This document shows, piece after piece, positions 2,006 to 9,829 of a stretch of 39,992 nucleotides of DNA; position 1 is the stretch's first letter, and each line of letters opens with the position of its first letter. Under the pieces are notes generated by a model. The model saw only the letters and a list, made by a program, of their open reading frames with translations. It did not search any database and was not told the origin of the DNA. The position numbers and the translations under genes were made by a program. Source of the DNA: a virus; the UHGV virus genome UHGV-0186582; one strand, 5' to 3'.

Positions 2006-3201
2006 GACTCCACCGTTATAACGATATTTTCCGGGGTACAGGACGCAGATTCGTTGTATCTGATATCAATGTTTGATGACGACAAAGCCCCCGGGGATTT
2101 CCCAATCGTCAGTTCCTGAATATCGTAATAGCGTGCATTCCCGCCACTCACCACGCCAAGATTCGCCGGTGAGTAAATGCGACTTAAAAGGACCGAATCA
2201 CCAATCGTCAGACTATTGATATAGTCGGAAATAGCCTGCTGGATCTGCTGCCCTATCTGTGAGGTATAACCCGTAAAAACTTTTAATTTAATCCGGGCAT
2301 AAACAGGCACATCACTGGAACGCGAGAATTTGATTACATGGGGATTGCCGTATTTATCCGGAACCGTAACGGATGTTGTACCGTGAGTGGCTGTCCCCTG
2401 GCCTTTATTCCCTCTGATAGCCTGAGCAATATCCGTCACATCACCGCCATCCACAATTACAGCAACAGAGTGTGGCGGTAACCCGTTGCCGTCCTCCGAA
2501 CCAGTATCGTTTTCATAGAGTTTGTGGCGGGTTACACCGGTAATATTAGAAACAGCACCATCCAGTGCTTCAAATGGGGTTATTGATGGCAACGCAACAC
2601 TTTGCGACTGGCGGATACGTAACTCCGAATCAGTTTCTGCCGGAGTGCCCACAGTGGCTGCAGCAGGATTGGTTACCGAAACCCAGCCACGGGTTGGCGT
2701 ATTAATTTCAGTGATAGTTCCAGCCAGCGCCGCCACTGCGCCACTGACGGAACATGTTGCGGTCACCATCACTGTACCATCCACTCCGACCACCACTGAA
2801 GCAGGCAAACGCCATATCACATTATTACTGTCTTTCACGCTGCCATTAATGATGGTTGTTCCGGTAGTTCCTGTAAGAAGCAAATCAACCGTAGAGTTCG
2901 TCGCGCCTTTACGTGAAATACCATTTATTTTCACGTTACTGGTCAGTGCAGCCCCATAGCCGGTTGCCGGTGAAAAACAGTTGTAGACAGTTATCGCCGT
3001 ATTATTGGCATCATGAATCGCCAGCGCCATCAGAGCCACCATCTGGCCGTCTTTGCTGTCCGGTTCGAGGTAGGCATCACTGCCATAAATCTGCTGAAAA
3101 TAGCTAATCAGGGTGCTGAGTATCGTCTGATAATCAGGCGCACTGATCCCCTCCGCGGTTACCTTTGCAGATAAACCGAGAGAATCAAGGTTCAGAGCCA
3201 T
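2002..3201 (-). CDS. Baseplate J-like protein (Mu gp47-like)
   Basis: 399-aa ORF, overlapping starts/stops with neighbours; position in Mu-like baseplate order. Confidence 0.6.
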   Translation of the reverse strand: MALNLDSLGLSAKVTAEGISAPDYQTILSTLISYFQQIYGSDAYLEPDSKDGQMVALMALAIHDANNTAITVYNCFSPATGYGAALTSNVKINGISRKGATNSTVDLLLTGTTGTTIINGSVKDSNNVIWRLPASVVVGVDGTVMVTATCSVSGAVAALAGTITEINTPTRGWVSVTNPAAATVGTPAETDSELRIRQSQSVALPSITPFEALDGAVSNITGVTRHKLYENDTGSEDGNGLPPHSVAVIVDGGDVTDIAQAIRGNKGQGTATHGTTSVTVPDKYGNPHVIKFSRSSDVPVYARIKLKVFTGYTSQIGQQIQQAISDYINSLTIGDSVLLSRIYSPANLGVVSGGNARYYDIQELTIGKSPGALSSSNIDIRYNESASCTPENIVITVES

Positions 3202-3554
3202 TACGCCTCCGATGTAACAGTCGTTATTCCATAAAGAGTGTCGATTTCAGCGGAAAACATGACACGTCGGGTCGTGGTATCCACCGTCGTATTGAAAGAG
3301 AGGATTGATTTAACGCCCCGCGTTTCGAGGATGCGCTTACGGATCGCCAGGTTGTAGGTTTCCGGCTTCTGCTTACCGAGTACGGACTGGATCCACGGAG
3401 TCCCCTCGGTGGTGTCGAGAAACCATTGCCCATACCACAATTCGAATCGCGTTTTTACCGCCTGCGCCACGGCCTCCGGTGAGTTAATCAGCCAGGTGTC
3501 ATCACCGCTGCCAAAGGTATAATCGCCATCGGCGTCTTCACGTCTGTATCGCAT
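3201..3554 (-). CDS. Baseplate wedge protein (gp25/GPW-like, Mu gp46-like)
   Basis: 117 aa; size and position between spike and J-like gene. Confidence 0.5.
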   Translation of the reverse strand: MRYRREDADGDYTFGSGDDTWLINSPEAVAQAVKTRFELWYGQWFLDTTEGTPWIQSVLGKQKPETYNLAIRKRILETRGVKSILSFNTTVDTTTRRVMFSAEIDTLYGITTVTSEA

Positions 3555-4306
3555 CAGTTCACCCCGTCTGTGTTGCTTCCGCCTCGCTGAACCCCGCCGT
3601 GCGTGTGAGTATCATCAATTGACTTGCCGTTAGCTTTAACGGTACCGATAAACTCGACAGCGCCGGTGATTTTGGATGCAACTCCAGAAGCAACAGACCC
3701 CACCATTCCACCCAGCCAGGACAGTAGCCCGTGAATGGTTACTTTCGCCGAGAAGTCGGCCAGCGGGGTAACTACATCCAGACCGCCAGGCGCTACGATT
3801 TTAATTTTCTGCGTATCCGGATTAAGGTCGATGTACGTACTTCCATCAACACTTCGAAGCTGCGCCGACGTGGTGCTGACATTCTTAATTTTGTTGGGCT
3901 GAGATATTTGACCCACTGAGCAGGTGGCGTCGGACAGGTCATGTATGCGGTCGTCGACAGGTTCCTGCACTCCACCGTTTTGCCAGAAGAAATCAATACA
4001 GCGGTCTTGAAACTTAAGTTCGCACTCATCGCCGGGGCTCACCGGCAACGTTAAAGTAACTCCCCCGGCCGTTGGGAATACCACGGGAACATCCACCAGC
4101 AGCGGGTAAGGTTTTGTCACCCGGTTACCATCGTTATCGATCTCAACGTAACGGATAGCAGGCTGCACAACCGCCGTAACCGCGTCAGAATCGAATGACT
4201 GAATAATGCCAGGCAAAGCGACTCGGATCTGGTTCTTTGTTGTTTCCCGTTCAGATTTGAATGTTTCAGCAAGGTCGCCGCTGCGGGTCTGGTCAGATAC
4301 TGCCAT
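3554..4306 (-). CDS. Baseplate spike / assembly protein V-like (Mu gp45-like)
   Basis: 250 aa; ATG at 4304-4306 with GGAG RBS upstream; position in baseplate cluster. Confidence 0.5.
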   Translation of the reverse strand: MAVSDQTRSGDLAETFKSERETTKNQIRVALPGIIQSFDSDAVTAVVQPAIRYVEIDNDGNRVTKPYPLLVDVPVVFPTAGGVTLTLPVSPGDECELKFQDRCIDFFWQNGGVQEPVDDRIHDLSDATCSVGQISQPNKIKNVSTTSAQLRSVDGSTYIDLNPDTQKIKIVAPGGLDVVTPLADFSAKVTIHGLLSWLGGMVGSVASGVASKITGAVEFIGTVKANGKSIDDTHTHGGVQRGGSNTDGVN

Positions 4307-4320
4307 TTAGTAGGCTCCAG

Positions 4321-4348
4321 AAAGCAAAAAACCCGCCGGGTGGCGGGT
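4321..4348 (-). terminator. Rho-independent terminator closing the inserted cassette
   Basis: Minus strand reads AAACCCGCC-ACCC-GGCGGGTTTTTTGC immediately after the TAA stop (4349-4351) of the 138-aa gene. Confidence 0.6.
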
Positions 4349-4765
4349 TTATGAATCGTAGGTTTTCAATTTTTCGAGTTCATCAGGAGGAAGTTCTATG
4401 AAGGTTTCCTCTGCTAATTTTATCAGCCTGGGAAGCATCGAATCAGCTTGCTGATGAGCGTTTGGGCTGATGATTGCCAATATCTGATAGTGTTCATCGA
4501 TATAAAGATGCTGAGCATATACCAAAAAATTATCACATGTCCGTTCACTCAGAGATGCTTCTGGAGGCCAGGGTTTATCGCCAGGTAGCTTTAAGTGAAT
4601 TTTCCTGATGTTGGCAGCCATCGCATCATAGTTACGTTCAAAACCGCCTAACGAACCAAAACACCAGAACTGGGAACCCTTTGAAATATAATCGGCAAGC
4701 ATTTGAGCATACTTATGTGCTGCAGCTAAATGACGCAATTCTCCCGTTATACTGACTTTTGCCAT
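4349..4765 (-). CDS. YafO-like toxin domain protein (putative mRNA interferase-type toxin)
   Basis: 138 aa; motifs LADYISKG, KIHLKLPGDKPWPP, SERTCDNFLVYAQH, YQILAIISPNAH, LIKLAEETF align with recalled E. coli YafO (TADFISYKRDG, HIHLANENNPFPP, SRTNDEAHLVYCQG, WLLIAILKPEPH, KIGKMAEAF); from memory, not an HMM search. G+C about 40 percent, below flanking tail genes. Confidence 0.5.
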   Translation of the reverse strand: MAKVSITGELRHLAAAHKYAQMLADYISKGSQFWCFGSLGGFERNYDAMAANIRKIHLKLPGDKPWPPEASLSERTCDNFLVYAQHLYIDEHYQILAIISPNAHQQADSMLPRLIKLAEETFIELPPDELEKLKTYDS

Positions 4766-4766
4766 G

Positions 4767-5339
4767 TCACATCCATTTAGGGGCGTCGGCTCCCAGCATC
4801 TTATGCGATGTAGAGATCAGTTCAATAGCCTCTTCACGGGTAACATTATCTGACAAGAGTTCAGCCAGGAAAGGCTGCGATTGCCTAACTTCAGCGGCCA
4901 ACTGAGTTGCAGTGTTCTCGACGGCGGTCAACGCACGAACATATTTGCGTTTTAATGGGCGCAACATTTGCAGATGGCCTTGCCACATAGGGGACCTTTC
5001 CGCTTCAGAGAACATATCCACTAAATGTCCTTTAGCATTTCGGCATGCCTTGGCAAGACCTTCGAGATGGGATAAAAACCCGTCCGGAAGCTCATCAACA
5101 ATGATTCTTCCATTTCGAAAAGCTTCGAGATGAGACATGCCTTCCTTCGCGGTATTTTCGATTTCTTGAGCGCGTGCAGCAATCGCGGTACAACGACGAA
5201 ATGCCTCTTCAGCATCTAATCGTTGTGGCAGTTCACAAGCATTAGAGATCAGGGGTTTGAAAGCACCGTTAACAGCTTCCTGAACCTGATTCATTTGTTG
5301 TGTAATTGTTGCCAGCGCAAATGCGTAGCTAATCGCCAT
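4767..5339 (-). CDS. Hypothetical ~190-aa protein, upstream partner of the YafO-like gene (candidate antitoxin/immunity); no recognised family
   Basis: Stop TGA is 1 nt from the downstream ATG (TGA-C-ATG); likely start is the ATG at 5339 with GAGGG RBS (ORF track starts at TTG 5345); no resemblance to YafN/Phd-type antitoxins that I can see. Confidence 0.5.
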   Translation of the reverse strand: MAISYAFALATITQQMNQVQEAVNGAFKPLISNACELPQRLDAEEAFRRCTAIAARAQEIENTAKEGMSHLEAFRNGRIIVDELPDGFLSHLEGLAKACRNAKGHLVDMFSEAERSPMWQGHLQMLRPLKRKYVRALTAVENTATQLAAEVRQSQPFLAELLSDNVTREEAIELISTSHKMLGADAPKWM

Positions 5340-5352
5340 ACCCAATCCCTCT

Positions 5353-5367
5353 GTCGTTTTAAACGAC
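5353..5367. promoter_or_regulatory. Perfect 15-bp palindrome GTCGTTTTAAACGAC in the AT-rich region upstream of the cassette; candidate operator
   Basis: Read directly; lies just upstream of the RBS of the 190-aa gene inside a 162-bp AT-rich intergenic region (5346-5507). Confidence 0.3.
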
Positions 5368-5507
5368 TATACACCACTTATTCAAAGTTAGCTGAGCGCT
5401 AAAAGTTCGCAAAGTTTAGTGATCATGCAACCACCTAGCAAGCGATAAAAAATCATTATTTAGTGAATGTGAACAAACTCAACACTATGCAGAAATGTAA
5501 CTTTTGG

Positions 5508-5861
5508 TTAACCATCAACCTTTTTACACGGGAAAGAACCGATGATTTTCGGCGCGTCCATGCTGTTCTGCAGTAGCTGAACGTTCAGAAAGCGCGTTTC
5601 GGTACCAGGGCGACGAATGTATTCAAAGCCGTAGTTGTTACCGTCTTTGGCAGGCATGAGGCCCATGTCTGCCTTCATACCGTTGCCGCTACCGAGCGTT
5701 TTAATTTTCTGGGAGGTAACAGTCTCACCATTAATCCTGAACAATGAATCAGGAACCAACTCTAATTTATAACCACCACACTGAAGCGTGACGCCGCCAG
5801 GATTCGCGGCAAATGCCGAACCTGAAAGAAAACAGAGTCCGATAACAATCCACTTTTTCAT
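5508..5861 (-). CDS. Small secreted protein with Sec-type signal peptide; unknown function
   Basis: 117 aa; N-terminus MKKWIVIGLCFLSGSAFA-ANPGG; two Cys in mature part; 2-nt gap to upstream baseplate gene. Confidence 0.5.
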   Translation of the reverse strand: MKKWIVIGLCFLSGSAFAANPGGVTLQCGGYKLELVPDSLFRINGETVTSQKIKTLGSGNGMKADMGLMPAKDGNNYGFEYIRRPGTETRFLNVQLLQNSMDAPKIIGSFPCKKVDG

Positions 5862-5863
5862 TC

Positions 5864-6928
5864 TTATCCTTCCCTCTGCAGAGACGAAGTAGAGCGGAGA
5901 TCCGCCGCGCCGCGCGCTTCACACATCATGTCCATGTACCACGCCTGGCCCCTTGTGTCGCCAGTGTACATAATCCCGCGCACAATATAAACGCCATCTG
6001 TTGCGATGCTGGCAGGCTGCGCCGTGGTGCCGCTGAGCGTGATATTTCCGTCCGTGTTCTGGTCGGTGATCTTCCCACCAGCCATCGCGATATCATTGTT
6101 CGACAGCGCGGTGCGGTACACGGAAGCCTGATCCAGCTGAATAAGCCCGTTAACCCGGATGTTCGGATTAATGAGCGCACGGACGTTTACGCCGTTACCG
6201 ATGGTCTGCTGCGGCATGCCAATAAGCCCGGTAGCACTGTTGAGCACAATCGCTTCGTGAACATATTCGTTATTCGCCACCATCTGGCGCTGACCGTCCA
6301 CGAATTGCCATGTTGCGCCACATTGCCCGGCTACGTTATCCATTAGATGCCGCGTCATGCCAAAGAGCACCCGCCCCCGGGGGAATACAGTAGCAGGCAT
6401 TTCAGGCGTCAGGCCTTCGGTCGCGCCTTTGGCTTCGAAGTCTTTCATCAGCGCACGGTTCACATCAGCGACCGTGTAACCGGCAGCCAGCGTCTGTGAG
6501 GTTATACTGGTGGCAAATGCCAGATCCGTATCTGCTGCCTGAATCAGGACATAGGAATCAATAGGGCTGTCTTTTCCTGTGACCGAGTAGCGAATTTCTC
6601 CGCTGAAAATCAGCCCGTAGTTGCGGCCATCACTCTGGCCCACATCTGCCGCGTCGACTTCGCGCACGGTCCCGACGTCGCTTGCCGCCACCTCAGGCGC
6701 GATACCGTCGTAACCGGCAATCAGCCGCACTTTCGAAAACTCCTGCCCGGTAATTCGGTTCACAGTATCTGCCGAAAGGTTATAAATTTTGATAGTCCCT
6801 ACCCGGGACGCGCTGCTGATGTTGAACCAGTCGATCGTAAAGGTGACTTTGAAATCACTTAGCTCAATTCCCTGACCATTCCCGTCCACAAGCTGCAGCT
6901 CGAAATGTCTCATCCAGTTCTGTGACAT
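5864..6928 (-). CDS. Tail/baseplate hub-like protein (Mu gp44-like position)
   Basis: 354-aa ORF in tail cluster; assignment by position. Confidence 0.45.
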   Translation of the reverse strand: MSQNWMRHFELQLVDGNGQGIELSDFKVTFTIDWFNISSASRVGTIKIYNLSADTVNRITGQEFSKVRLIAGYDGIAPEVAASDVGTVREVDAADVGQSDGRNYGLIFSGEIRYSVTGKDSPIDSYVLIQAADTDLAFATSITSQTLAAGYTVADVNRALMKDFEAKGATEGLTPEMPATVFPRGRVLFGMTRHLMDNVAGQCGATWQFVDGQRQMVANNEYVHEAIVLNSATGLIGMPQQTIGNGVNVRALINPNIRVNGLIQLDQASVYRTALSNNDIAMAGGKITDQNTDGNITLSGTTAQPASIATDGVYIVRGIMYTGDTRGQAWYMDMMCEARGAADLRSTSSLQREG

Positions 6929-6930
6929 GC

Positions 6931-7233
6931 TTACTCCGTTGATACCAGTAAATGACTGCGGCCGCCCAGATCAGTTTTCGTGGGATAATCCTGTGTGTTG
7001 TCATCGCAGACCACCACCAGCTTAAAACCAAGTCCCATACAGGCGTACTGCGCCAGCAGATCAGCGCCAGTGACGAGAGGAATACCGGAGATTACCGGCT
7101 CCCCTCTGTCGTTCTGCAGGTCCATAATCCAGTAAAGATCGCGCCATATGATGCTAATCTGCCAAGTGACACCACCCAGGACGATGCTGAACTGCTGGTT
7201 GTCCGCTGTCAGCGGAATTTCCTGAATTATCAT
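6931..7233 (-). CDS. Hypothetical tail protein
   Basis: 100-aa ORF tightly packed between tail genes. Confidence 0.4.
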   Translation of the reverse strand: MIIQEIPLTADNQQFSIVLGGVTWQISIIWRDLYWIMDLQNDRGEPVISGIPLVTGADLLAQYACMGLGFKLVVVCDDNTQDYPTKTDLGGRSHLLVSTE

Positions 7234-7820
7234 TAGCCGCCTCCCAGTAATGACGCCACGTTACCAGTGATGCTTTTCAGCAGTGAAGTATCTGGAGGCT
7301 TTGTGGTTTTGTTGCCGCTGTTCTGTACCGCCGACGTGCTGGCCCCTTCCTTCATGTTGGTTTTATCCGCGACGGTAATCTGCTGTGTCCGGGAGATAAT
7401 GACCTCCCTCAGGGTGAGGACGGCGGACAGGACGTTTTCGGTTGTCTTGTCCGTCGTCACTTCCAGCGCCCGGATCAACATGTTGCTGTACAGCCGTTTA
7501 CCGGTTACCACATCGAAGGGGATACGGATTTCCTGCAGATCCAGTAGCTCCTGATACGTCTGCTGAGGACTCAGGCCGAGCATGCTGGTAGCCGTCAGAT
7601 TACTGGCAAAATCCAGCAATGCACCGCCACCGGCGAAACCAACCTCCATCACCACTTCTGACGGTTTTTTATAGGCATGATCAGCGACAGCGGCCCCGAC
7701 CTCTACCGGATGCTCTGTTATTTCAAGCATATCTGTATGCTTCTCTGAAATAACAACACTGGGAACAATCATTCCTATTTTTCTGCTCTGCTGATGAAAA
7801 AGTGTAGAGAGAATATCCAC
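7233..7820 (-). CDS. Hypothetical tail protein
   Basis: 195-aa ORF immediately downstream of tape measure gene. Confidence 0.4.
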   Translation of the reverse strand: MDILSTLFHQQSRKIGMIVPSVVISEKHTDMLEITEHPVEVGAAVADHAYKKPSEVVMEVGFAGGGALLDFASNLTATSMLGLSPQQTYQELLDLQEIRIPFDVVTGKRLYSNMLIRALEVTTDKTTENVLSAVLTLREVIISRTQQITVADKTNMKEGASTSAVQNSGNKTTKPPDTSLLKSITGNVASLLGGG

Positions 7821-9829
7821 TAACCCACCCTCACCTGATTACTTCGCATGACCTGAGCATTTGCAGACTGTTGCCGACGTGCAACCTCATTACCGACAGC
7901 GTGCGGATCTCCGCCACCGTAAATGTGGTAAGTATTTTGCTGGTTAACCTCTGTCACTTTGCCACTAATTCCTGCCACGGCAGCCTTATTAATCAGCTCT
8001 CGAGAATAGATATTTCTTCCATTTTCATGCTGGATAATACTGCTCATCAATGCTGACATGGTTTGCGGATCGCTCATATTCAGGGTAGCCCGGGGATCCA
8101 CTCCCAGACGTTGCGATACAGCCCTGATATACGCAGTTGTGTTGTTATTATCAGACGCAGGTGCCCAGGTAGAGATAATTTTCTCCACGCTGTTTATTCC
8201 ACGTCCGGCGTACAACATTAACTGACGAGCAAGAGCCCGTAATCCATCAAAAGCAGTTTCAAATCTGGCAAATCGCCCGCCCGGGCGTTCAAGAGAAGCC
8301 CCTGCCTGACCAGCAAAATTAAGGTTTCCCGGATTGTTATTCCGTTCTCCTCGTTTCGTAGCCTGTGCATATTGTTCCGGCTCATCATCACCAAACCAGC
8401 CGCGTACCGTCCGGCCCACGCTGCGAGGATCGAATCCCCAGTGCTCTTTAATCCAGTCGGCAGTACTGTTAGCGCTGTCTGTAACCATCGGCATCGCTGA
8501 CGGATTTTCGCTGCCCTGATTAAGTATCTGTTTGCTGATGCTGACGGCATCAGCCCAGCGGCCATCTTTGATAGCGTTGAGCAGGTCGGCGATCATGTTC
8601 AGCATTTTGCTGAATTCGCCCATCTGGTCGATGAAGTTGCTGAAATCCCACTTCAGGGACCATGATTTGGGGTCAATATTGAGCAGTTTCGCCAGCGCTT
8701 TCGCCAGTTCATTAACAGACCCTTTCAGGTCACGAACCATCTTCAGCGCGGCATCGACCTCCGGCTTCCACTTACCCCAGTCAATCAGGCTGTCGCCGCC
8801 TTCCTTCCAGGTCTGATAGTCCTCCCACAGAAGGGCAATCCCCGCCGCCAACGCGGTAATGAGGCCAATCGGCGACATCCAGAACGTACTGTTCAGAATG
8901 CGCAGTGCAATCGTCAGCGCGCCAAACAGCGAGATGAGCTCCCGCGTTTGCTTATCCAGCGATTGCCACCAGGTGATAAGGCCTGATGTCCCCTCAATCA
9001 GTCTGAAGAACAACCGCCCGATAATATCCCCGAGCGCCAGAATGCCTTTTATGGCTTTCGTCAGGGTCTGCTCGATACGCGGGAAGTTGTCCAGGATATG
9101 GCGGCGCAGAGTGTCCAGCGAACCCGCAAGCCCACCCGCAAGATTAGAGCCGATTTTGTCACGGGCCATGCCTGCCATCGCGCCAAACTCACGCAGGGAG
9201 GTCATAAATTTGTTGGAGCTTCTGGCCGCCTCGTCAGCATTGAAGCCGATAGCTTTCGCCATTGCGCTGTACTGCCCGGAGAAGCCACCCACACCCCGGC
9301 GCATCGCCATAAGGGTATTTTCGTCAATGCCCAGCATCTGCGCATACTGGTTAGCCCGGTAATACGGCATGCCGCTGAGCTTCTGGCCTACACCTGTAAA
9401 AATAGCGGCCATGTCACGCATGTTACCGCTGGCATCACGGGTCTGTACGCCCAGGCGATTCAGAAAACCTTCTGCACCGGGATTGTTACGAATAAACCGG
9501 GAGAGGCTTTCCAGAGAAGATCGCGCAGCGTCCACGCTGCCGCCAACCTGCGAAACCGCATAGCCAATAGACTGAATTCCCTGGACTGTCGCGCCGGTGC
9601 GCTGTGACGCCCAGTAAAGATTATCCAGGCCGGAGGCAATCTTAGCCGTAAAGGCCACCACAGACAGTGCAGCTCCTTCAACGGACACCCCCATTTTGAT
9701 GACATTTGCAGTTGTACCGGCGAGGACAGAACCGAACTTTTTCGCGCCTGCCTCATCCACACTGAAGCCAAGCGAGACGAGGAAATCTTTAATAGTTTCA
9801 GCGTTCATTATCCTCTCTCCATTTCTCAA
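7820..9829 (-). CDS. Tail tape measure protein
   Basis: 669 aa, long helical/Gly-Ala-rich protein following tail chaperone; ATG overlaps upstream frame stop (ATGA). Confidence 0.75.
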   Translation of the reverse strand: MRNGERIMNAETIKDFLVSLGFSVDEAGAKKFGSVLAGTTANVIKMGVSVEGAALSVVAFTAKIASGLDNLYWASQRTGATVQGIQSIGYAVSQVGGSVDAARSSLESLSRFIRNNPGAEGFLNRLGVQTRDASGNMRDMAAIFTGVGQKLSGMPYYRANQYAQMLGIDENTLMAMRRGVGGFSGQYSAMAKAIGFNADEAARSSNKFMTSLREFGAMAGMARDKIGSNLAGGLAGSLDTLRRHILDNFPRIEQTLTKAIKGILALGDIIGRLFFRLIEGTSGLITWWQSLDKQTRELISLFGALTIALRILNSTFWMSPIGLITALAAGIALLWEDYQTWKEGGDSLIDWGKWKPEVDAALKMVRDLKGSVNELAKALAKLLNIDPKSWSLKWDFSNFIDQMGEFSKMLNMIADLLNAIKDGRWADAVSISKQILNQGSENPSAMPMVTDSANSTADWIKEHWGFDPRSVGRTVRGWFGDDEPEQYAQATKRGERNNNPGNLNFAGQAGASLERPGGRFARFETAFDGLRALARQLMLYAGRGINSVEKIISTWAPASDNNNTTAYIRAVSQRLGVDPRATLNMSDPQTMSALMSSIIQHENGRNIYSRELINKAAVAGISGKVTEVNQQNTYHIYGGGDPHAVGNEVARRQQSANAQVMRSNQVRVG

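Follow-up and report, generated by a model that had tools for sequence, protein, structure and literature searches.

A putative private promoter and a leader with two predicted RNA stem-loops upstream of a mobile YafO-family toxin cassette in a temperate myovirus

Background

Autoregulation through operator palindromes is the norm for type II toxin-antitoxin systems, and such palindromes are known from the relBE, phd-doc and ccdAB operons. In the virus genome UHGV-0186582, a perfect 15-bp palindrome lies in a 162-bp intergenic region directly upstream of a two-gene toxin-antitoxin cassette, which raises the question of whether this palindrome is an operator as well. A sequence-only reading of this DNA (39,992 nucleotides, the window in what follows) had noted that it looks like an operator for autoregulation of the cassette.

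Here we compare the cassette with its homologues in other phages and in bacterial genomes. Our analysis leads us to regard the region (5346-5507), with fair confidence, as carrying the promoter that belongs to this mobile cassette, together with its 5' leader. The palindrome, judged from its evolution in the homologues, is better understood as encoding an RNA stem-loop directly next to the ribosome-binding site than as a repressor site. The explanation as a whole, namely a private promoter and leader, RNA stem-loops that act after transcription, and a palindrome that is an RNA stem, we hold to be rather probable. Two readings in which the cassette proteins act on the palindrome, either as DNA or as RNA, and a third in which the palindrome has no function, are weighed below where the evidence bears on them.

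Genomic setting of the region

The genes around the region all lie on the minus strand. They belong to a temperate myovirus of the SEN34-like (Brunovirus-type) kind and form its tail and baseplate module. In the order of transcription, the features of this module and of the cassette are:

7820-9829, minus strand: tape measure gene
7233-7820, minus strand: gene for a Dit-like protein
6931-7233, minus strand: plug gene
5864-6928, minus strand: hub gene
5508-5861, minus strand: 117-aa phrog_3443 gene
5346-5507, minus strand: intergenic region, from the phrog_3443 stop (5508) to the start of the 190-aa gene; putative cargo-specific promoter and leader of the cassette
4767-5339, minus strand: 190-aa gene, putative antitoxin (phrog_35514, without a Pfam family), ATG at 5339
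4349-4765, minus strand: 138-aa YafO-family toxin gene, ATG 1 nt after the upstream TGA
4329-4350, minus strand: GC-rich hairpin followed by a T-run, terminator-like, closing the cargo slot and common to SEN34 and 606R2
3554-4306, minus strand: spike gene

The GC content of the intergenic region is 36.4% compared with 49.3% for the whole window, which places it in the lowest 1.8% of all 162-nt windows; the earlier description of the region as AT-rich is therefore correct. The 117-aa phrog_3443 protein has an N-terminal segment that, judged by eye, is signal-peptide-like. In E. coli relatives the homology breaks inside the phrog_3443 gene (window 5669-5753) while the intergenic region and the cassette stay at least 96% identical, which indicates that this gene is mosaic.

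A YafO-family toxin with an all-helical partner

The two genes of the cassette are separated by a single base (TGA-C-ATG). The product of the second gene matches the Pfam family YafO_toxin (PF13957) with 62.6 bits against a cutoff of 25 (E 4e-17), so that the proposed toxin-antitoxin nature of the cassette is supported on the toxin side. The YafO family, whose toxins are endoribonucleases, has been reviewed (PMC11980606, PMC8546651). The toxin scores only 31 bits against the NCBIfam equivalog model PRK09885, for which the cutoff is 153, and by this measure is not an orthologue of the E. coli K-12 YafO.

The start of the 190-aa protein is ATG 5339, and not TTG 5345, as comparison with homologues indicates. 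The family to which this protein belongs comprises 36 clusters with 46-99% identity, is restricted to Enterobacterales and carries no annotation. A YafO-family gene lies directly downstream of the 190-aa gene in all 13 loci that have gene calls, and is intact (138 aa) in 12 of them. In the remaining locus, L019, the YafO gene is split into ORFs of 53 and 80 aa (3133-3491), and the stem-loop next to the Shine-Dalgarno sequence is different in sequence and lies 11 nt further from it; this locus may represent a decaying cassette.

Searches of Pfam, NCBIfam, PADLOC and PDB sequences returned no match for the 190-aa protein. In particular, a DNA-binding domain of the RHH, HTH, AbrB or Phd/YefM type was not found by Pfam, NCBIfam, PDB sequence or AlphaFold model, nor was an antitoxin domain of the YafN (Phd/YefM) type by Pfam, NCBIfam or the AlphaFold model. 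The model, built with 25 homologues, consists of four long helices and a short C-terminal helix (pLDDT 73, pTM 0.68), and fold searches with it recovered generic helical bundles only. The protein is slightly acidic, with a pI of 5.98. Its N-terminal 40 residues are the most conserved part, also in lineages where the stem-loop at the position of the palindrome is entirely different.

The yafN-yafO pair of E. coli K-12 is part of the LexA-controlled dinB-yafNOP operon and uses YafN. The cassette resembles this pair in carrying a Pfam YafO_toxin and in the tightly coupled order of antitoxin followed by toxin. It differs from it in that the toxin is not the K-12 orthologue, the partner is an unrelated all-helical protein of 190 aa instead of YafN, and the cassette has a predicted promoter of its own (see below). 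In addition, no LexA box (CTG-N10-CAG) of the kind found in dinB-yafNOP was seen when the sequence was read by eye. As far as components are concerned, the cassette and the K-12 system have only the toxin family in common.

The cassette as cargo in a tail operon

The phages SEN34 and vB_EcoM-606R2 have a backbone in common with the window up to the stop codon of phrog_3443, and the match resumes at the hairpin AACCCGCCACCCGGCGGGTTTTTTGC in front of the spike gene (from 4350). Between these shared flanks both phages carry other genes with almost no spacer, and region 5346-5507 is absent. The absence of this spacer from relatives with other cargo, together with a promoter that is kept in every homologue of the cassette, upholds the view that the region controls the two-gene cassette. 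The interval from phrog_3443 to the spike gene (window 4329-5507; L001 4008-4486; L002 2419-2991) is a cargo slot, which is occupied by the YafO cassette here, by a 138-aa phrog_13160 protein in SEN34 and by a 170-aa phrog_19013 protein in vB_EcoM-606R2. The right-hand boundary is the same for all three cargos, namely the GC-rich hairpin with its T-run.

Extra genes that sit with their own promoter and terminator between the late genes of lambdoid and other temperate phages are known as morons (the concept of Hendrix and Juhala). Like morons, the cassette is inserted between conserved tail genes that adjoin each other, across shared flanks, in SEN34 and vB_EcoM-606R2 apart from the other cargo found there; it has its own promoter-like element of the sigma-70 type, which is predicted and is conserved in all homologues; it is followed by a terminator-like hairpin (4350-4329; 9 bp, GC-rich, with a T-run); and its GC content (45%) is below that of the hub and spike genes (53-55%). 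Unlike in morons, the downstream hairpin belongs to the backbone shared by the relatives and not to the cargo, and what is carried is a toxin-antitoxin pair behind a conserved, structured leader. Our comparison of these genomes suggests that the cassette is a moron that occupies the slot between hub and spike in the tail operon of a SEN34-like myovirus. Moron promoters followed by a structured leader are, as a kind of element, well known; literature searches found no studies of the cassette itself.

The cassette is found in a variety of contexts. The YafO pair occurs in the hub-spike slot of related myoviruses, and the cassette, preceded by a leader of the same kind, follows a siphovirus tape-measure gene in one setting and a tail-tube/YdaY module in another. 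It is also found near AntA and baseplate genes and, again with such a leader, beside the type I restriction gene hsdR in Serratia. Such a spread is the behaviour of a moron or of a defence-island cassette. The intergenic region is present in 37 of 5,426 complete E. coli genomes at an identity of at least 98.8%, and the cassette is also present in several other Enterobacterales and their phages.

Two of these occurrences deserve separate description. In Serratia (L007/L008, ~2390-2420; 3747 onward), where the cassette adjoins the hsdR gene, what is left of the 3' end of phage phrog_3443 (…GATTGCGTGAAGGTGAAGTGA) still precedes the cassette promoter, and for this reason the Serratia cassette probably came from the phage slot. 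The 190-aa gene is also found, with 97% identity, in the Shigella flexneri entry NZ_CP012733.1 (41,686 bp, filed as a plasmid). This entry has the size of a complete phage genome of the present type and may be an episomal or excised prophage.

A conserved promoter upstream of the cassette

The upstream regions of the homologous cassettes, 30 of them distinct (28 + 2), were aligned. The elements that can be placed between the phrog_3443 gene and the start codon at 5339 are:

5442-5456, minus strand: T-rich tract ATGATTTTTTATCGC just upstream of the -35 hexamer; TTTTT-yrC-TTGC is common to lineages that differ further upstream
5436-5441, minus strand: -35 hexamer TTGCTA, conserved across the upstream regions
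5413-5418, minus strand: -10 hexamer TAAACT, after a 17-nt spacer, conserved across the upstream regions
5405-5408, minus strand: predicted transcription start, most likely A5406, from promoter geometry (7 nt after the -10 hexamer)
5388-5402, minus strand: stem-loop 1 (HP1), UUAGC-GCUCA-GCUAA, 5'-proximal in the predicted transcript
5368-5387, minus strand: AU-rich single-stranded linker with a semi-conserved GTGG/GTAG box
5353-5367, minus strand: stem-loop 2 (HP2), GUCGUU-UAA-AACGAC, the palindrome of the sequence-only reading; ends 1 nt before the Shine-Dalgarno sequence
5347-5351, minus strand: Shine-Dalgarno sequence GAGGG, 7 nt before the ATG

The pattern TTGNNN-N17/18-TANA[AC]T occurs in each of the 30 distinct upstream regions, and its position is equivalent throughout; for L062, in which a second, more distal match exists, the proximal one was taken. 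The distance from this element to the ATG is 103-110 nt, except in L012 (132) and in L019 and L087 (118). In the homologues it takes the form TTGCyn or TTGAAG, followed after 17 (rarely 18) nt by TAAACT, TACACT or TAGAAT. The hexamers are invariant or nearly so, with positions T1, A2, A4, C5 and T6 of the -10 hexamer invariant in groups 1 and 2, and the spacers are unrelated in sequence between homologues. The column of A5406 is an invariant A in 19 sequences. Homology among cassettes from different contexts begins at about 5442-5456, and most lineages have a T-rich tract before the -35 hexamer, which is possibly UP-element-like in function.

These data point to a conserved sigma-70-type promoter of moderate strength, TTGCTA-17-TAAACT at 5441-5413. 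Its geometry suggests that transcription starts near A5406, which would give a leader of about 66 nt. The element scores 8/12 against the consensus, just under the threshold of our promoter scan, which is why both the scan and the sequence-only reading missed it. The -35/-10 pair that the sequence-only reading could not place convincingly can be placed by the comparison of homologues.

The consensus scan itself returned a single site, compared with 2.4 in shuffled sequences, which is not significant. This site, TTGAGT-16-AATAAT (5482-5455, minus strand), was rejected as its -35 hexamer reads CTGAGT in the closest divergent relatives. The hexamer TATAGT (5371-5366), which overlaps the palindrome, was likewise rejected as a -10 element: it has neither a -35 hexamer nor an extended -10, and it is not conserved beyond the E. 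coli and Salmonella lineages.

As the 117-aa gene is not followed by a terminator ahead of the cassette, transcription of the late operon from upstream probably also reads through into the cassette. A further observation concerns Dam sites. A GATC occurs in the promoter spacer of the window (5421-5424), and GATC is found inside the promoter in four lineages, at differing positions (the window; L004/L047; L009/L014/L019/L049; L017). At the GATC density of the window, about 0.07 sites would be expected per 29-nt promoter. A methylation-sensitive expression of the cassette promoter is possible.

Two stem-loops in the leader

The palindrome GTCGTTTTAAACGAC at 5353-5367 reads GTCGTTT-T-AAACGAC, with 7-nt arms around one central base. 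It is a perfect 15-bp palindrome, as had been reported, and on the coding (minus) strand a single base separates it from GAGGG. As RNA, it can form a stem of no more than 6 bp, closed by a 3-nt loop.

Taken by itself, the palindrome is within the range of chance. The window contains 9 perfect inverted repeats (arms of at least 7 nt, spacers of 0-3 nt) compared with 10.7 +/- 3.7 in dinucleotide shuffles, and a shuffled 162-nt region holds such a repeat 4.9% of the time. In addition, the folding energies of the two hairpins are weak (-3.9 and, for HP2, -4.2 kcal/mol), and the leader as a whole folds no better than shuffled sequences (z = 0.05). All of this would agree with a palindrome that is a functionless chance feature of AT-rich intergenic DNA, in which only the promoter and the ribosome-binding site matter. 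Chance, however, gives no account of the conservation: the stem-loop at the HP2 position is kept down to ~56-60% antitoxin identity while the loops and the flanking linker diverge, and HP2 has undergone at least 8 pair-state changes of which none disrupts a core pair. We consider this reading very improbable. What marks the palindrome as a real feature is that homologous cassettes in other phages and genera have a stem-loop at the corresponding position.

HP1 is conserved as a paired element. The five pairs of its core are paired in 19 of 19 sequences, with replacement of G:C by U:A in three sequences, of U:A by C:G, and with several U·G pairs. Its covariation score is 0.173 compared with 0.086 in shuffles (0 of 500 shuffles reach 0.173), the fraction of paired cells drops from 72% to 26-38% when the partner is slid, and RNAalifold predicts HP1 independently.

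In HP2, all cells are paired (100%) in 11 co-linear sequences, and three of the six pairs alternate between U:A and U·G. The sequences L009, L014 and L049 have GUCGA/UCGAC, in which a U:A pair is flipped to A:U. In L004 and L005 the arms read GTCGTT/AGCGGC, which breaks the symmetry of the DNA, although U·G pairs maintain the stem in the RNA. Between the invariant GTCG and CGAC lie 5, 6, 7 or 8 nt, depending on the lineage. In L019 and L087 HP2 is replaced by an unrelated stem, AAGGUC/GGCCUU, and in a Pantoea-type group (L006, L012, L020, L062) by a GC-rich hairpin followed by a U-tract.

The Pantoea-type cassettes are the most divergent, with 46-52% antitoxin identity, and in them the strong replacement hairpin lies between the promoter and the Shine-Dalgarno sequence (L006 ~3951-3980, L012 ~2452-2480, and the corresponding positions of L020 and L062). 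Its sequence resembles an intrinsic terminator, which suggests an attenuator or a leader RNA of ~60 nt.

Pair-state changes in both stems were counted by parsimony on a neighbour-joining tree of the antitoxin gene. MAFFT and covariance-model alignments mis-register the short-stem lineages L014, L049 and L019, and their HP2 states were entered by hand; the structural alignment of HP2 is hand-made for four lineages. By this count, the two stems have undergone at least 14 changes, of which 3 are compensatory double changes and 11 are one-sided. On the coding strand, every one-sided change produces a U·G pair, and an A·C pair is never the outcome. If one-sided transitions gave either outcome equally, such a result would be expected about 5 times in 10,000, a value to be read with the relatedness of the stem sequences and the small number of independent events in mind. 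The antisense strand of HP2 has no stable fold (dG 0) in L004, L005 and L058-L059, where the sense strand has energies of -3.6 to -5.2 kcal/mol. Pairing has thus been kept by compensatory and wobble changes on the transcribed strand, and the pattern of substitutions argues that it is preserved only in the coding-strand RNA. With a start near 5406, as predicted, or with read-through from the late operon, both stem-loops would lie within the transcript.

In addition to the pairing, the motifs GTCG and CGAC/CGGC are conserved in sequence, which leaves room for a sequence-specific partner, either a protein or an RNA. Rfam has no match in 5346-5507, even at E <= 10. RNAalifold on 19 sequences also pairs CUUUG (5410-5414, within or after the -10 hexamer) with CAGAG (5349-5353, the end of HP2 and the Shine-Dalgarno sequence). 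This pairing is possible only in read-through transcripts from upstream, and would mask the Shine-Dalgarno sequence in them.

Operator or RNA stem

According to the usual scheme for type II systems, the 190-aa protein, with or without YafO, would bind the double-stranded palindrome at 5353-5367 as a dimer and repress transcription, in this case as a roadblock beyond the start site. The near-invariance of GTCG...CGAC across groups 1 and 2 fits this scheme, and compensatory changes in both arms are also expected of co-evolving half-sites. A novel helical protein, moreover, could bind DNA in a manner that fold searches miss. Like the operators of relBE, phd-doc and ccdAB, the palindrome is an inverted repeat upstream of an antitoxin-toxin operon, with compensatory changes in both arms.

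The likeness does not extend further. Unlike those operators, the repeat of the cassette adjoins the ribosome-binding site and lies downstream of the promoter, ~40-54 nt from the predicted start and 46 nt from the predicted -10 hexamer, and does not overlap the -35 or -10 element. Half-site spacing is not fixed, and the range of 5 to 8 nt is one that a hairpin would tolerate and a dimeric DNA-binding protein would not; in L004 and L005, symmetry is lost (4 of 6 positions). The one-sided changes favour one strand in 11 of 11 cases, a strand-specific tolerance of wobble for which protein-DNA binding gives no reason. The unrelated hairpins of L019/L087 and of the Pantoea-type lineages occur together with a conserved N-terminus of the 190-aa protein, and this protein, slightly acidic, has no DNA-binding fold that we could detect. 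Thus, overlap with the promoter core (in itself a prediction), symmetric half-sites at a fixed spacing and a DNA-binding domain, all of which mark a type II operator, are not found here. We consider autoregulation at this palindrome unlikely, and the claim that it serves as an operator is one that the comparison of homologues does not support.

A variant of the operator scheme places the protein on the upstream palindrome, TTAGC-N5-GCTAA (5402-5388), which lies at about +5 to +19 and has a constant spacing in groups 1 and 2. As a candidate DNA operator, HP1 is better than the palindrome that was originally proposed. The two palindromes are unrelated in sequence, which again speaks against the operator scheme, and neither motif has a further copy in the window, so that the prophage gives no sign of a site for a phage-wide regulator.

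Possible role of the leader

If the two palindromes are RNA stems, as we prefer to read them, the leader has a parallel in the 5' UTR of ompA. The ompA stabiliser, studied in the Belasco laboratory, has one stem-loop at the very 5' end and another hairpin ahead of the ribosome-binding site, with an AU-rich single strand between them. The cassette leader likewise has a 5'-proximal hairpin, an AU-rich linker and a second hairpin just upstream of the Shine-Dalgarno sequence. It differs from the ompA leader in being much shorter (~66 nt), in its weaker hairpins and in having a 5' end that is predicted. The two leaders have no sequence similarity, the cassette leader matches no Rfam family, and a stabilising effect is proposed here by analogy only.

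In the mechanism that we propose, transcription would begin near A5406, with HP1 near the 5' end and HP2 abutting the Shine-Dalgarno sequence. Both hairpins would work at the post-transcriptional level, in the manner of ompA-like 5' hairpins: RppH and RNase E would be kept from the 5' end of the message, whether primary or processed, and the 5' edge of the ribosome-binding site would be defined. The result would be a steady, low expression of the cassette in the lysogen, whatever operon receives the cassette. A role of the hairpins in mRNA stability or translation is, in our view, a tentative proposal. With a start at A5406, about 4 unpaired nt would precede HP1, which is borderline for protection of the 5' end.

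A more specific version, in which the hairpin keeps the Shine-Dalgarno sequence open, was rejected as a general effect: the mean unpaired probability of the Shine-Dalgarno sequence and start codon is 0.43 in native leaders compared with 0.42 in shuffled leaders (25 leaders). It is higher only in the window's own lineage, at 0.63 compared with 0.40 for shuffled leaders.

An alternative at the RNA level is that the hairpin next to the Shine-Dalgarno sequence binds the 190-aa protein, its complex with the toxin or the YafO RNase, and in this way controls the translation or cleavage of its own mRNA. Such autoregulation would replace the missing DNA-binding function. YafO-type toxins are RNA-binding enzymes (PMC11980606, PMC8546651), the hairpin directly adjoins the Shine-Dalgarno sequence, and the antitoxin has no recognisable DNA-binding fold. 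The constraint on substitutions at the level of the sense-strand RNA would also fit, as would the conservation of the GUCG/CGAC stem in sequence and not in pairing alone. The 190-aa protein, however, is not basic (pI 5.98) and has no RNA-binding fold, and in the Pantoea-type lineages the HP2 position is taken by a completely different, terminator-like hairpin. We know of no precedent for autoregulation at the RNA level in a YafO system, and we give this alternative little credence. The broader idea behind it, that control has moved from DNA to RNA and that the hairpin is the site at which the partner, the complex or YafO acts on its own mRNA, starts from an all-helical partner without a nucleic-acid-binding fold and from a conserved two-hairpin leader that is absent from Rfam; it, too, strikes us as a long shot. 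If it were true, the cassette would be a type II-like toxin-antitoxin system regulated after transcription, and the HP2 position of the Pantoea-type lineages would be an attenuator resembling an intrinsic terminator.

Conclusions

A palindrome that precedes a toxin-antitoxin operon need not be an operator, and for this cassette the comparative evidence favours an RNA stem. A map of its control elements is now available, with a promoter, a predicted start and two stem-loops. The cassette also brings to light an uncharacterised partner family for YafO toxins, which rides in the tail-module slots of phages and beside restriction systems, a setting that is typical of anti-phage or exclusion functions.
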